Shown piece after piece: positions 26,649-34,010 of a stretch of DNA of 35,140 bases. A program made the position numbers and the translations under genes. The DNA is from Escherichia coli (GTDB lineage Bacteria > Pseudomonadota > Gammaproteobacteria > Enterobacterales > Enterobacteriaceae): the NCBI RefSeq assembly GCF_003334405.1, contig NZ_QOWM01000027.1. One strand, written 5' to 3'. The notes under the pieces were generated by a model. The model was not told the origin of the DNA, ran no database searches, and saw only the letters and a program-made list of their open reading frames with translations. Each line of letters starts with the position of its first letter. Positions within the stretch are counted from its first letter, which is position 1.

Positions 26649-26691
26649 AAGACTAAACCCAATATTCGGTTTCTTAACTTTGCGGTGCGCT

Positions 26692-28278
26692 ATGGCACAT
26701 CCACCACGGCTTAATGACGACAAACCGGTTATCTGGACGGTATCTGTAACGCGCCTGTTCGAGCTGTTTCGCGATATCAGCCTCGAGTTTGATCACCTGG
26801 CGAACATTACCCCTATTCAGCTTGGCTTTGAAAAAGCAGTGACCTACATCCGCAAGAAACTGGCAAACGAACGCTGTGACGCCATCATCGCGGCTGGCTC
26901 TAACGGCGCGTACCTGAAAAGCCGCCTGTCAGTGCCAGTTATTTTGATTAAACCGAGCGGCTACGATGTGTTACAGGCACTGGCAAAAGCCGGAAAACTC
27001 ACCTCTTCTATCGGCGTTGTCACCTATCAGGAAACCATTCCAGCGCTGGTGGCGTTTCAAAAAACCTTTAATTTGCGCCTCGACCAACGTAGCTACATTA
27101 CCGAGGAAGACGCACGCGGGCAGATTAACGAGCTAAAAGCTAACGGCACCGAAGCGGTGGTCGGCGCAGGGCTGATTACCGATTTGGCAGAAGAAGCCGG
27201 AATGACCGGAATTTTTATCTATTCCGCCGCCACCGTGCGCCAGGCGTTCAGCGATGCGCTGGATATGACGCGCATGTCGTTACGCCATAACACTCACGAT
27301 GCCACCCGCAACGCCCTGCGTACTCGTTACGTGCTGGGCGATATGCTCGGTCAATCACCACAGATGGAACAAGTACGGCAGACTATTTTGCTGTATGCCC
27401 GCTCCAGTGCGGCGGTGTTGATTGAGGGGGAAACGGGGACGGGCAAAGAGCTGGCGGCCCAGGCGATTCATCGGGAATATTTTGCCCGCCACGATGCGCG
27501 ACAGGGCAAAAAGTCGCATCCGTTTGTTGCCGTCAACTGCGGGGCGATTGCCGAATCGCTGCTGGAAGCAGAACTGTTTGGCTATGAGGAAGGGGCGTTT
27601 ACCGGCTCGCGACGCGGAGGTCGCGCCGGGCTGTTCGAAATTGCCCACGGCGGTACGCTGTTTCTGGATGAGATTGGCGAAATGCCGCTACCTTTGCAGA
27701 CCCGGCTGCTGCGGGTGCTGGAAGAAAAAGAGGTCACCCGCGTCGGCGGGCATCAGCCTGTTCCGGTAGATGTACGGGTCATTAGCGCCACTCACTGCAA
27801 TCTGGAAGAAGATATGCAGCAAGGACGTTTTCGCCGTGATCTGTTTTATCGGCTGAGTATTTTGCGTCTGCAATTGCCACCACTGCGCGAGCGGGTGGCG
27901 GATATTCTTCCGCTGGCGGAAAGCTTTTTGAAAGTGTCTCTGGCGGCGCTCTCCGCCCCATTTTCTGCTGCATTACGCCAGGGGTTACAGGCAAGTGAAA
28001 CTGTGCTGCTGCACTACGACTGGCCAGGCAATATTCGTGAACTGCGCAATATGATGGAACGACTGGCGCTGTTTTTAAGTGTGGAACCGACGCCGGATTT
28101 AACGCCGCAGTTTATGCAACTGCTACTGCCGGAACTGGCGCGCGAGTCGGCGAAAACTCCCGCTCCACGCTTACTGACACCACAACAGGCACTGGAGAAA
28201 TTTAATGGCGATAAAACAGCAGCGGCGAATTATTTAGGCATCAGCCGGACGACGTTCTGGCGGCGGCTGAAAAGCTGA
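26692..28278 (+). CDS. prpR: Sigma54-dependent transcriptional activator of the prp operon
   Basis: 528-aa protein [33 protein letters not shown]... with AAA+ Walker [15 protein letters not shown] sigma54-contact motif and C-terminal HTH; ORF-track entry starts 4 codons upstream at a TTG. Confidence 0.92.
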
Positions 28279-28280
28279 AC

Positions 28281-28313
28281 TGCCGAATGCAGCGCGAACG
28301 CTTTATCCGGCAT
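28281..28313. repeat. Single REP-like unit between convergent prpR and yahO
   Basis: tgccgaatgcagcgcgaacgctttatccggcat, palindromic and REP-like. Confidence 0.5.
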
Positions 28314-28375: not shown

Positions 28376-28651
28376 TTACTTCTTCTTATAAATATTTGCC
28401 GTGCCGTGGATCTTATTGTCAGTTTGACCGGAGGTCAGTACCAACACATCAGCCCCTTTTTCATCCGCTTTTTTGATCAAATCTTCTTTTGCATCTGCAG
28501 TCGACATTTCATTGCTGGTTGAAATATCACCTATTTTTTCATACTGCGATTCAACTTTTTCAAATTCCGCTTTGGTCATCAATTCAGCGGCATAGACATT
28601 GGTAACGGCTAACGCTAACGCACCGACTAACATTTTAGAGATTATTTTCAT
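28376..28651 (-). CDS. yahO: Small periplasmic protein, DUF1471 (YdgH/BhsA/McbA-like) family
   Basis: 91-aa [42 protein letters not shown]... with a signal peptide ending VYA-AE. Confidence 0.85.
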
Positions 28652-28797: not shown

Positions 28798-29469
28798 ATG
28801 ATGCAGTTAGTTCACTTATTTATGGATGAAATCACTATGGATCCTTTGCATGCCGTTTACCTGACCGTAGGACTGTTCGTGATTACTTTTTTTAATCCGG
28901 GAGCCAATCTCTTTGTGGTAGTACAAACCAGCCTGGCTTCCGGTCGACGCGCAGGGGTGCTGACCGGGCTGGGCGTGGCGCTGGGCGATGCATTTTATTC
29001 CGGGTTGGGTTTGTTTGGTCTTGCAACGCTAATTACGCAGTGTGAGGAGATTTTTTCGCTTATCAGAATCGTCGGCGGCGCTTATCTCTTATGGTTTGCG
29101 TGGTGCAGCATGCGCCGCCAGTCAACACCGCAAATGAGCACACTACAACAACCGATTAGCGCCCCCTGGTATGTCTTTTTTCGCCGCGGATTAATTACCG
29201 ATCTCTCTAACCCGCAAACCGTTTTATTTTTTATCAGTATTTTCTCAGTAACATTAAATGCCGAAACACCAACATGGGCACGTTTAATGGCCTGGGCGGG
29301 GATTGTGCTCGCATCAATTATCTGGCGAGTTTTTCTTAGTCAGGCGTTTTCTTTGCCCGCTGTGCGTCGTGCTTATGGGCGTATGCAACGCGTTGCCAGT
29401 CGGGTTATTGGTGCAATTATTGGTGTATTCGCGCTACGCCTGATTTACGAAGGGGTGACGCAGCGGTGA
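28798..29469 (+). CDS. yahN: LysE/RhtB-family amino-acid exporter homologue
   Basis: 223-aa hydrophobic ORF MMQLVHLFMDEITMDPLHAVYLTVGLFVITFFNPGANLFVVVQTSLASGRRAG... Confidence 0.85.
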   Translation: MMQLVHLFMDEITMDPLHAVYLTVGLFVITFFNPGANLFVVVQTSLASGRRAGVLTGLGVALGDAFYSGLGLFGLATLITQCEEIFSLIRIVGGAYLLWFAWCSMRRQSTPQMSTLQQPISAPWYVFFRRGLITDLSNPQTVLFFISIFSVTLNAETPTWARLMAWAGIVLASIIWRVFLSQAFSLPAVRRAYGRMQRVASRVIGAIIGVFALRLIYEGVTQR

Positions 29470-29485
29470 GCAGATAATTTACTCT

Positions 29486-29731
29486 CTACGTAATCAACCT
29501 GATTTGCCGAATCACGGCCATCGGCGATGATAGCCCCCGTAATGCGTGGTCCTTATTTCCGATAAGTTTACTTGAGTCTTTAGCTTCCCATTTCAGCCCA
29601 CTCTCCCCTGTGTGGGCTTTTTTCATTGGTCTGCCCCATCCTGAATAGCCAAACAATGGCAATGTTCCACTTTGCAGGGATGATAATAAGGGGATCTGAT
29701 TCAGAAGAGTTTTGAAAAGTTGGACCGCCAT
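29486..29731 (-). CDS. yahM: Small protein of unknown function
   Basis: 81-aa ORF from ATG 29731 (MAVQLFKTLLNQIPLLSSLQSGTLPLFGYSGWGRPMKKAHTG...); the ORF-track entry is 10 codons longer. Coding status is uncertain: a + strand terminator hairpin lies inside it. Confidence 0.5.
   Translation of the reverse strand: MAVQLFKTLLNQIPLLSSLQSGTLPLFGYSGWGRPMKKAHTGESGLKWEAKDSSKLIGNKDHALRGLSSPMAVIRQIRLIT
29595..29623 (+). terminator. Rho-independent terminator candidate (likely for yahN)
   Basis: agcccac-tctcccctgt-gtgggct followed by TTTTTT: GC-rich 6-7-bp stem plus T-run; ~125 bp downstream of the yahN stop. Confidence 0.55.
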
Positions 29732-30143
29732 CGAGGCCTCGAACCCCGTACCATACAACAATCCTGGTTGTCGTCTGCTCTTCCTGATGAGCTAATGGCG
29801 GTTTTTGATATGAGCCTTACAGCATATTTTCTGTCAGGCTTGAGTGCGATGCGTAAGATACAGAAAAGACCCCACACAAACATGATGGAATTATGATTTT
29901 TTTCATATGAATGTCAACCAACACATTCACAAAACATCTGCATGAGATCATTTTTTATACACCGCATGGCTGCGAAACCACTACTGGTGCTTTTTTAAGC
30001 GAAGTGTCGCCGATCACAACAAAATATCGGCGAAAAAAGAGATGGAATGCCAGTTGGCATACAGATATACAGATGAAATGATTACCTGCATTGCGATTCA
30101 CTCTCAGGTGGAATAACAACTTGCAGGTGGAACCCTTTCTGAA

Positions 30144-30959
30144 CTAAAGAGTGTAGCGGATTTTAACGTGCTTATTTACAGGATAATATCTGTCACCTAA
30201 TTCCTGCACTCTATTAGATATCCATTCATTTAATCGCGCATCATCTCTGTATGTTTTTACGTCCAGAACAGAGAGCAATAACATCACCAGTGATTCAGGA
30301 AAAACAGGGTAGATATTTTTTAAGTGTAATAATAATCCATGCGCAAGCGCCTGCTTAATGGGCGCGTCTGTCTCCGGAATAGACGACATTTCGCGAAGCC
30401 ATTTTTCCACATGCATACACTCTTTCCCTTTAGGGAAAATTCTCAGCAAAGGCATATGGTATTCAAGAAGAATACATTTGCAATCTGTTCGCACTGAATC
30501 GATAAACTGCACTAATTTCTTAAGCCCGGTAAAGCGTCCAGCCTGCACGTTTGCTTTAATATCAAGAAACGCATCATCCTGGTCATATACCCAAACTGTC
30601 CCTTTTTGATTTTCAAGTATGTGAAAAACAAACTTAACCGGGTGATCAGGGTAATCCATCCAGTCATAAAATCCAGGGAAATCATTAAACTGCACATTTA
30701 TGGTGAGTGCGTTATCGTCTGACCACTCACAGTCTCGTACGGCAGCCATGAGATGAATGAGTTTGTCGTCATCGACTAAATCATCACGACAATCATAAGG
30801 ATAATCATAATATTGTTTAATCAAAACCTTGAATATATCGACACAGGAAACCAGGGAGCTTTTGATATCCTCTGGTAACTGATTGTTTTTAACCGTATTA
30901 AGTATGCTTTGTTGCGTATATGGCATCAAATTATTGTGCGGAGCTTTTAATGATATCAT
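30144..30959 (-). CDS. yahL: Protein of unknown function
   Basis: 271-aa ORF MISLKAPHNNLMPYTQQSILNTVKNNQLPEDIKSSLVSCVDIFKVLIKQYYDYPYDCRDD...; AT-rich coding region; no recognisable catalytic motif. Confidence 0.8.
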   Translation of the reverse strand: MISLKAPHNNLMPYTQQSILNTVKNNQLPEDIKSSLVSCVDIFKVLIKQYYDYPYDCRDDLVDDDKLIHLMAAVRDCEWSDDNALTINVQFNDFPGFYDWMDYPDHPVKFVFHILENQKGTVWVYDQDDAFLDIKANVQAGRFTGLKKLVQFIDSVRTDCKCILLEYHMPLLRIFPKGKECMHVEKWLREMSSIPETDAPIKQALAHGLLLHLKNIYPVFPESLVMLLLSVLDVKTYRDDARLNEWISNRVQELGDRYYPVNKHVKIRYTL

Positions 30960-31126
30960 CGCGATCTCTCTTAAATAAAAATAAACGTCGCAGATAATAA
31001 AGCTCTGATTAAACCAGGCACTATCAGAAATCGCTCATAACTAACGTGTGAAGTATTGTGTACTGGAGGGCGTTAATTTAACAATTTAAATTTACGTTAT
31101 AGGTTTTACTGCTACTTTGATATTAT

Positions 31127-31164
31127 TTCGCTCTCCTTAACTAAAAAGTTAAGTGGAGAGCGAA
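31127..31164. other. Strong imperfect inverted repeat (hairpin) between yahK 3' end and yahL 5' end
   Basis: ttcgctctccttaact-aaaaa-gttaagtggagagcgaa: 10-bp perfect stem plus a further 5 bp; flanks are not clearly U-rich on either strand. Confidence 0.45.
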
Positions 31165-31201
31165 GTTAATATGTTAAACCACAGGGTATTTATTAATTTT
31201 T

Positions 31202-32627: not shown

Positions 32628-34010
32628 TCAACCTGCCACACTCCCCCACACCAGTTGCCCTTTATGGAACGTTGCGGTTCTCGGCGAGATACGCGCCACC
32701 GCCTCGGCGGAACAGGAGGCGTCCACCAGCACAAAGCTGGCGTCATCCTGCGCTTTTGGCCATACACGCTCGCCTTTTTCATTCAGCGGCAATACATCGC
32801 CAGTGGCTAAAAACAGCGAGCGGGAGAGGTTCTGTTCGTTAGGACGAATATAGAGCTGCGCGTACAGATTGGCTTTTTCCAGCATGTCGCCCAGACCATA
32901 AGGCGACCAGTGGTCGATAACGCTGTCAGTGCCAGTCATCACTTTTACGCCTTTGTCGTGCAACTGTTTGAGCGGCATATGCAGCGTGCCAATCGGCACC
33001 GTCGAGGCGATAGAAATTTGTTGCACCACCATCCGGTTCGCCAGTTCATCTACCTGTTGCTCGTTGAGCGTTGCCAGCGCAAAGGCGTGACTGATGGTCA
33101 GCTTGCCCTTCAGCTGTGGCGTTTTCTCTACCGTTTCAACCATATAATTGATGGCTGCCACGCCTGCCGGAGTGGTTTCGTGCAGGTGAATATCGACGCC
33201 TTTGTCGTAGTCCAGCGCAATCTGGAACATGGTGTCGAGGGATTTTTCCATCGCGCCATCAACACTGGTCGGGTCCAGGCCGCCGACGTAATGCGCCCCC
33301 GCCTGCATCGCTTCACGCATTAAAGGTTCAGATTTCGACAGCAGCAAACCGTGCTGCGGGAAGGCGACGATTTCACACTCAAAGCCCGCCTGACGTCGCG
33401 CCAGCACCGCCTGCAAATTTTGCAGATTTTTCAGGCCGGAAACCGGTTCGATATTGCAGTGGCTGCGGGCAATGGTGGTGCCTTTCGACTGCAATAAATC
33501 AATCAGTTTTTCTGCCCGCTCCTGAGTGTACGGTTGCAGTTCCGGCAGCATTTTCTGCTCGAGTTTGATCATGTCCTGGATGGTGGTGCCTGCCGGACGA
33601 TTGAGCGAGCGCCACGGCCCGCCGTAAAAGGTTTTGTCGAGATGAATATGCATGTCGCGGGTGGTGGGCAGCATCAGCTTACCGCCAGCGTCATAGTGCG
33701 GCAGCGTGGCGTCCGGATGCAGCTTGTTCTCGCGCAGGGCGACAATTTTGCCGTCCTGAATCTCCACGGTCTGGCGCGCCGTGCGGGTCTGCACCGCCAC
33801 GCCATTTTCGTAGTCAAAACCGGTTTCCAGCAGCACGTTATCGAGATAGTAATGCGGGTCAGTGATTTTCATGGTGTTGTTCGCTTCGCAGTTTAGGGTG
33901 CCAGCTACCGCCGCATGGGCGAGCGGCACAGAGGTACCAAACAGCGCGGCGGCGGTGACCATCTTACCGCTCTGGCTCAGAAATTCACGGCGGCTATTGC
34001 TTTCTTTCAT
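32628..34010 (-). CDS. yahJ: Amidohydrolase-family putative deaminase with a Tat signal peptide
   Basis: 460-aa ORF MKESNSRREFLSQSGKMVTAAALFGTSVPLAHAAVAG...: twin-arginine motif SRREFL, hydrophobic stretch, AxA cleavage site; metal-dependent amidohydrolase HxH-like motif (RDMHIHLD). Confidence 0.85.
   Translation of the reverse strand: MKESNSRREFLSQSGKMVTAAALFGTSVPLAHAAVAGTLNCEANNTMKITDPHYYLDNVLLETGFDYENGVAVQTRTARQTVEIQDGKIVALRENKLHPDATLPHYDAGGKLMLPTTRDMHIHLDKTFYGGPWRSLNRPAGTTIQDMIKLEQKMLPELQPYTQERAEKLIDLLQSKGTTIARSHCNIEPVSGLKNLQNLQAVLARRQAGFECEIVAFPQHGLLLSKSEPLMREAMQAGAHYVGGLDPTSVDGAMEKSLDTMFQIALDYDKGVDIHLHETTPAGVAAINYMVETVEKTPQLKGKLTISHAFALATLNEQQVDELANRMVVQQISIASTVPIGTLHMPLKQLHDKGVKVMTGTDSVIDHWSPYGLGDMLEKANLYAQLYIRPNEQNLSRSLFLATGDVLPLNEKGERVWPKAQDDASFVLVDASCSAEAVARISPRTATFHKGQLVWGSVAG

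Follow-up and report, generated by a model that had tools for sequence, protein, structure and literature searches.

The orphan gene yahL and an adjacent tRNA-like element between yahK and yahN in Escherichia coli

Between the genes yahK and yahN of Escherichia coli lie an AT-rich stretch carrying the orphan gene yahL and, directly downstream, the small gene xtpA, part of which is a tRNA-like sequence. We analyzed this region in a 35,140-nt stretch of E. coli DNA (contig NZ_QOWM01000027.1; hereafter the window), which corresponds to E. coli K-12 MG1655 339,995–375,134 in reverse orientation, with the coordinate offset calculated from gene matches. The account that we favor, if with some reserve, is that two separate old foreign pieces sit between yahK and yahN: a yahL islet that would be kept quiet by H-NS-type silencing, and an xtpA unit whose tRNA-like RNA would be its functional part. 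The two pieces appear to have different histories, because the tRNA-like unit and its promoter occur without yahL in Escherichia albertii and in Escherichia sp. E1V33. The main features, in window coordinates, are as follows.

29954–31126, no strand: AT-rich islet of about 1.17 kb, borders approximate (blastn of K-12 segments against records L012 and L015, and spacer alignment)
30144–30959, minus strand: yahL (b0326), 271 aa (open reading frame and annotation)
30131–30965, no strand: 835-bp deleted segment, comprising the yahL open reading frame with 13 bp downstream and 6 bp upstream (alignment, adjacent blast blocks in L002 at 3662/3661, junction search and CFT073 annotation)
30960–31201, minus strand: yahK–yahL spacer, 242 bp, 32.2% GC (sequence)
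31127–31164, minus strand: hairpin TTCGCTCTCC...GGAGAGCGAA just 3' of the yahK stop, at the upstream islet edge (inverted repeats I3/I4)
29917–29890, minus strand: sigma-70 promoter TTGACA-16-CATAAT, 11/12 matches (sequence)
29701–29883, minus strand: xtpA (b4845), 60 aa (RefSeq K-12 annotation)
29721–29801, minus strand: 81-nt tRNA-like element (ARAGORN)

Results

The yahL islet is set apart from the rest of the window by its composition. GC content is 38.4% in 29762–31201 versus 53.6% in the whole window, which places this segment in the lowest 0.4% of all 1440-bp windows; the 1440-bp minimum (37.8%) starts at 29802, and 29941–31126 has 38.6%. yahL itself has 38.8% GC, with 39% at third codon positions, and the neighboring genes yahK and yahJ have 53.3% and 56.3%. 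yahO and further intergenic stretches close by are just as AT-rich. The AT-richness of yahL and its flanks, noted in the first-pass annotation of this DNA, is thus borne out, as is the 242-bp distance between yahL and yahK. The 382-bp distance that it gave between yahL and yahM relied on a 91-aa frame with a TTG start, and the annotated 81-aa yahM starts at 29731. Moreover, its description of the spacers on both sides of yahL as non-coding is wrong on the downstream side, where a published element sits: this side contains xtpA, its promoter and the 81-nt tRNA-like element, and the unannotated gap from yahL to xtpA is 260 bp.

Comparison with related genomes suggests how the islet arose. In a scan of one genome per GTDB species, a 34-mer from the tRNA-like element was found in four records: E. 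albertii, Escherichia sp. E1V33, a divergent species labelled E. coli, and an E. coli-like metagenome-assembled genome. E. albertii (L012, NBRC 107761) has neither yahK nor yahL, and its gene order is yahJ, the hairpin, a spacer of ~125 bp, the promoter with the tRNA-like element, and yahN. E1V33 has yahK, the hairpin, a spacer of ~95 bp, the promoter with the tRNA-like element, and yahN, again without yahL. The corresponding K-12 stretch is ~1.2 kb, compared with roughly 95–130 bp of spacer in these two species, and local alignment detected no similarity between the outgroup spacers and the islet. The islet is present in E. coli and one divergent lineage; its place is taken in E. albertii and E1V33 by a short spacer of unrelated sequence. 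Because of these short spacers, the ~1.17-kb block looks like foreign DNA that was inserted between two conserved features, the hairpin and the promoter. The tRNA-like element next to it predates the islet, since it is present without it in both outgroups.

The hairpin at the upstream border retains its stem, CGCTCTCC/GGAGAGCG, in E. albertii and E1V33, and the loops differ. In E. albertii it comes after yahJ, yahK being absent there. It is not a canonical intrinsic terminator, because no U-run follows it. On the far side of yahK, SCU-108 and the divergent lineages L008–L011 have ABC-transporter genes in place of yahJ. Both sides of yahK are thus variable, given these replacements and the lack of yahK and yahL in E. 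albertii.

The gene yahL is not universal. It is present in 4,076 of 5,426 complete E. coli genomes (75%) and absent from 1350, and the xtpA/tRNA-like segment is found in 5,170 of the 5,426. The deletion that removes yahL spans 835 bp, and its junction has no filler and no obvious microhomology. A 120-nt probe spanning the junction gave a full-length match in 1,073 complete genomes; among the remaining genomes, the 25 listed as a sample gave a match split at position 60/61, or in one case at 61/62. CFT073, a phylogroup B2 strain, lacks yahL and carries the deletion arrangement according to its annotation. Strains without yahL keep the AT-rich flanks of the gene, and the yahK–yahL spacer remains 89% identical in them. 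Given these retained flanks, and given that yahL occurs in a deeper lineage, a single secondary deletion is the simplest explanation for strains without the gene.

Small repeats occur in the gap between yahL and xtpA. ATACAGAT is present twice in tandem at 30059–30074, and small direct repeats ACTCTCAGGTGGAA / ACTTGCAGGTGGAA lie 19 bp apart at 30100–30132. In the ACTCTCAGGTGGAA/ACTTGCAGGTGGAA pair, the end of the second copy coincides with the left border of the 835-bp deletion.

Sequence evolution indicates that yahL is a real gene. Alleles of 79% and 87% identity occupy the same yahK–yahN site, and the open reading frame is exactly 271 codons long in both. The ratio of non-synonymous to synonymous divergence (dN/dS) relative to K-12 is 0.167 and 0.197, and these values indicate that yahL is translated and under moderate purifying selection. 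The corresponding ratios for yahK, yahO and prpR are 0.02–0.06, and the YahL protein evolves 4–7 times faster than its neighbors. In the more divergent lineage the synonymous divergence (dS) of yahL, 0.67, equals that of yahK, 0.62. Since the alleles share a site and yahL dS equals that of yahK, yahL has occupied the yahK–yahN site since before the divergent lineages split. Its acquisition thus appears to be old rather than recent, with vertical inheritance since. The horizontal acquisition proposed in the first-pass annotation is in this sense a reasonable reading that needs an early date: the foreign composition, the restriction of this orphan to E. coli and the short outgroup spacer speak for it, and the synonymous divergence marks the event as old. 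A promoter for yahL is presumably contained in the yahK–yahL spacer.

The YahL protein has no recognizable motif, in agreement with the initial reading of the sequence. Searches of Pfam, NCBIfam, PHROG and PADLOC returned no significant profile match; the top match, Pfam SDH_protease (i-Evalue 0.0028, score 17), was below threshold, and the other libraries gave nothing. Relatives were found only in E. coli, both among 5.8 billion proteins and when HMMER was run over the full set of 1.84 billion cluster representatives. They comprised the K-12 type, the 87% and 79% identity alleles, fragments, two apparent assembly chimeras (P0009 and P0010) and a single full-length paralogue, P0027, of 275 aa (24% identity, pairwise E 7e-19). 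The P0027 gene (L007 8001–8828) lies in a different islet, of 30–38% GC, in a rare E. coli, between the uxuR–yjiC region and genes for invasin and type III secretion. A nucleoside-transporter fragment flanks it on one side and an invasin-like gene on the other, with a TPR chaperone gene and an SseC-like translocon gene nearby. P0027 was found in none of the 5,426 complete E. coli genomes. A tblastn search of 50,697 phage records gave no YahL match, and a plasmid search matched only F-prime plasmids and mislabelled chromosomes, with no true plasmid copy.

Structure prediction likewise gave no family or fold. The AlphaFold2 model, made from a four-sequence alignment, has a mean predicted local distance difference test (pLDDT) score of 59.7 and a predicted template modeling score of 0.63, and Foldseek found nothing except YahL itself. 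In this low-confidence model the N-terminus is disordered, a sheet of five strands follows and the C-terminal region is helical; YahL is probably soluble, with a core of the alpha/beta type. Several specific relationships were considered and rejected: hhalign was negative for a distant relationship to YdjO and YjfZ, E. coli-specific proteins of similar size; a relationship to the DUF2686 neighbor of P0027 was not upheld; and the charge and isoelectric point (5.7) gave no hint of a DNA mimic. By these searches YahL appears to be an orphan restricted to E. coli to which no biochemical function can be assigned.

Downstream of the islet, the −10 hexamer of the xtpA promoter ends at 29890 and is followed by 6 nt (TCCATC) and the xtpA ATG at 29883. 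Because only 6 nt separate the hexamer from the ATG, the spacing fits a leaderless mRNA, with transcription predicted to start at the AUG. The promoter is kept in 7/7 lineages compared, and the tRNA-like sequence encodes the C-terminal half of XtpA. This gene and its tRNA-like sequence are already known: RegulonDB v12 cites Muto et al. 2022 (J Biochem 171:459) for xtpA as a leaderless mRNA with a tRNA-like sequence (PMC10767902). Among the matches listed, xtpA is not annotated in the non-K-12 RefSeq records.

Two lines of evidence show that the XtpA reading frame is not conserved among relatives. In both E. albertii and the L009 lineage its fourth codon is a TAG stop, although it is intact in E1V33 (59 aa) and within E. 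coli proper; and over codons 1–27 the proportions of non-synonymous and synonymous differences between K-12 and E1V33 are about equal, at 0.20 and 0.19. Parsimony favors an ancestral TAG at codon 4, which would later have become TGG in E. coli and AAG in E1V33.

The tRNA-like element behaves quite differently. Its minimum-free-energy fold is a cloverleaf (−30.2 kcal/mol, z = −2.5), and the ARAGORN call and this fold give it the acceptor, D, anticodon and T arms and the 3' CCA of a tRNA. It is not, however, a canonical tRNA. The Rfam tRNA model found no match on 241 nt even at E ≤ 10, the anticodon is at position 38 with 4 extra nt in the anticodon region, and the predicted anticodon stem of 7 bp and loop of 6 nt depart from the standard 5-bp stem and 7-nt loop with U33. 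All 81 of its 81 positions are the same in K-12, SCU-108, the two divergent lineages with yahL, E. albertii and E1V33, whereas in the three distant lineages the neighboring 82 nt of xtpA have 80–88% identity, yahN is 83–87% identical, and flank identity overall is 80–90% beside the invariant core. The invariant block runs from ~4 nt ahead of the acceptor stem to one nt past the CCA, boundaries that track the RNA element and not the reading frames. From the seven sequences compared, we infer that genus-wide selection acts on the tRNA-like RNA (or DNA) and that the XtpA frame is young or lineage-specific.

The element has relatives in phages. In a blastn search of phage genomes only a ~89-nt piece matched, at the place that argN occupies in the ileZ–argN–argO cluster of lambdoid phages, Stx phages among them, and identity to the phage argN copies was 74–85% over 82–92 nt. 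The nearest relatives of the K-12 element are a degenerate, unannotated 81–82-nt variant between ileZ and argO in phiP27 and mEp460. On the E. coli plasmid pHX138.261ft_1, which has phage-like genes, this variant is annotated "tRNA-OTHER". Its coordinates are L004 1501–1582, about 1501–1588 in L006 and L003 4001–4081, and ARAGORN does not call it. Among IMG/VR contigs sharing the first 34 nt of the element, 14/14 carry the phage variant and 0/14 the K-12 form. This homology indicates that the tRNA-like element derives from a phage argN-type tRNA. Local alignment of its flanks with ileZ and with phage DNA downstream of argN was no better than for shuffled sequences. Neither the 5' half of xtpA as a decayed ileZ nor an origin of yahM from the phage DNA downstream of argN held up by that test. 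The argN homology is thus found at this locus, and flanking ileZ, argO or phage late genes are not.

The status of yahM as a gene is doubtful. Its start lies inside the acceptor stem of the tRNA-like element. Comparisons within E. coli gave 0 synonymous versus 6 and 9 non-synonymous differences, and the frame is cut to 11, 31 and 17 codons in three distant lineages and frameshifted in CFT073. A reporter study (10.1101/2025.05.13.653802) describes IHF repression at the "yahM promoter" of a "completely uncharacterized" gene; its position suggests that the promoter in question is probably that of the xtpA/tRNA-like transcript.

The surrounding genes and remaining features are the following.

26680–28278, plus strand: prpR (list of open reading frames and K-12 annotation, as for the next five genes)
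28376–28651, minus strand: yahO
28798–29469, plus strand: yahN
29486–29731, minus strand: yahM (b0327), 81 aa
31202–32251, minus strand: yahK
32628–34010, minus strand: yahJ
29596–29623, plus strand: terminator-like hairpin with T-run downstream of yahN, within the yahM open reading frame on the opposite strand (sequence; terminator-shaped sub-threshold Rfam match at 29575–29625)
30007–30014 and 30026–30033, no strand: inverted repeat TCGCCGAT-N11-ATCGGCGA (repeat search)

The inverted repeat was already described in the first-pass annotation, which had its 11-nt spacing right and placed it 3 bp too far to the right. The significance of this repeat is doubtful: 3 perfect 8-bp inverted repeats were observed against 0.67 expected, a number reached by ~5% of shuffles, and strain SCU-108 has an uncompensated mismatch in it. 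A role as terminator or operator was rejected, as the repeat has no U-run on either strand, is marginal relative to chance and is not conserved. Between prpR and yahO there is also a sub-threshold Rfam match to naRNA4, a REP-type element (28239–28312, minus strand; 28.6 bits, E 0.03).

Discussion

The region between yahK and yahN can be read as two foreign pieces of different origin. For the first, we propose that ~1.2 kb of AT-rich DNA was inserted between the post-yahK hairpin and the xtpA promoter before E. coli itself arose, in one of its ancestors, with vertical inheritance from then on. The insertion would have brought in one real protein-coding gene, yahL, with no detectable relatives outside E. 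coli. The gene is dispensable, as one 835-bp deletion removed it from the B2-type lineage. Binding of H-NS to the AT-rich DNA would keep the islet transcriptionally quiet, and yahL may be expressed only on relief of this silencing, which would suit a niche-specific accessory function. For the second piece, a strong promoter would fire directly at the AUG of xtpA, and the transcript, annotated in K-12 as the leaderless XtpA mRNA, would contain a cloverleaf derived from the argN slot of the lambdoid ileZ-argN-argO cluster. The tRNA-like RNA would be the anciently conserved functional part, and the XtpA and YahM frames would be young or incidental. A more specific version, which we put forward tentatively and regard as possible though on balance doubtful, is that a domesticated phage tRNA relic acts as an RNA and has been unchanged since before the split of E. 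coli and E. albertii, that XtpA is a recent de novo frame, and that yahL is an unrelated orphan inserted later, just upstream of the promoter. Such a relic might, for example, be a tRNA mimic that is processed or bound by tRNA-handling enzymes.

The yahL islet resembles the H-NS-silenced xenogeneic islets of enterobacteria, which are AT-rich and hold orphan genes of restricted lineage. Its GC content is ~15 points below that of the surroundings, it holds a single orphan gene, and its distribution is patchy. The H-NS nucleation motif TCGATAAATT has 7 matches in the window at ≤1 mismatch, 2 of them inside yahL. Promiscuous RNA polymerase binding in vitro is also found inside the yahL open reading frame: genomic SELEX (systematic evolution of ligands by exponential enrichment) data place peaks there for the sigma-28, sigma-24 and sigma-32 holoenzymes (PMC5493296). 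H-NS silencing of the islet, which the first-pass annotation had suggested, is plausible, with the composition, the motifs and the polymerase binding as indirect hints. Unlike such islets, the yahL islet is old and vertically inherited, with dS equal to that of its neighbors, and has no mobility genes or att sites.

Several observations weigh against the account that we favor. Among the open reading frames at the islet there is no integrase or insertion sequence, no direct repeats flank it as att sites would, and our searches found no donor. The insertion is deduced from absence in just two outgroup lineages. Among the papers searched, none linked yahL or b0326 to H-NS binding, and the fold description of YahL is weak given the low confidence of the model. 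Finally, Muto et al. reportedly describe a function for the XtpA peptide, and an RNA-level reading may conflict with it.

Could yahL have arisen in place? Ancestral intergenic DNA that was already AT-rich may have given rise to it, either de novo or through runaway divergence, so that its low GC content reflects non-coding ancestry and weak selection rather than transfer. The lack of homologues outside E. coli in the protein collections searched, a dS equal to that of the neighbors, the absence of mobility genes and the fast evolution of the protein are all expected on this explanation. We nevertheless consider it unlikely, because a full-length 24% paralogue exists in an unrelated AT-rich islet of another E. 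coli, which points to a mobile family from an unsampled source, because 271 codons with a dN/dS of ~0.2 are long for a young de novo gene, and because the outgroup spacers have no similarity to the islet. Still more doubtful is the idea that the AT-rich stretch is functionally trivial, with yahL a spurious or decaying frame and nothing under selection. The conservation of exactly 271 codons in the 87% and 79% alleles at a dN/dS of 0.17–0.20, next to a tRNA-like core that is invariant across the genus, makes this highly unlikely, even though YahL has no function, no domains and a low-confidence structure, and was lost in a quarter of genomes without obvious cost.

It is also conceivable that yahL, xtpA and yahM are one decayed lambdoid prophage fragment, in which yahL was a phage moron that arrived with the tRNA relic. 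If so, the unit and its promoter should not stand without yahL in E. albertii and E1V33, as they do, and phage homology should extend past the edges of the tRNA-like element, where it ends. For YahL itself, PHROG gave nothing below E 0.1, and the phage records gave no match by tblastn. We therefore judge a prophage fragment quite unlikely, although the element is homologous to the argN slot of Stx and lambdoid phages, lies directly downstream of yahL in the same orientation, and phage morons are typically AT-rich orphans. The closest known counterpart of the element among phages is the ileZ-argN-argO cluster of 933W, phiP27 and Stx2a_WGPS8. It matches argN in the acceptor stem, the D and T arms and the CCA, and the best match, at 85%, is to the 81–82-nt degenerate variant of phiP27-type phages. 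Unlike the cluster, the E. coli element is a single tRNA-sized piece without ileZ, argO, Q or stx context; its anticodon arm differs from that of all 14 viral-contig copies, it has its own promoter, and the Rfam tRNA model does not recognize it.

What do these findings mean for E. coli? As regards the yahL islet they are ordinary and largely already known, as yahL is an orphan gene that is annotated but uncharacterized and lies in an AT-rich part of the most thoroughly studied of bacterial genomes. There is a practical consequence nonetheless. yahL has been proposed as a conserved E. coli/Shigella signature gene for water testing by quantitative polymerase chain reaction (PMC11057252). A yahL-based diagnostic assay would fail to detect roughly one in four complete genomes, among them CFT073, the uropathogenic archetype.

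Of these findings, only the comparison of the tRNA-like core among lineages is of some interest beyond this locus. The element at 29701–29883 (minus strand), with its tRNA-like part at 29721–29801 (minus strand), is identical to the xtpA of Muto et al. Our comparison shows that invariance is confined to the 81-nt cloverleaf across Escherichia and that E. albertii and one divergent lineage have an interrupted XtpA frame. The "yahM promoter" of regulatory work most likely drives the xtpA/tRNA-like transcript. An invariant tRNA-like core, set against an XtpA frame that is broken in two lineages, thus offers a direct test of whether peptide or RNA carries the function.

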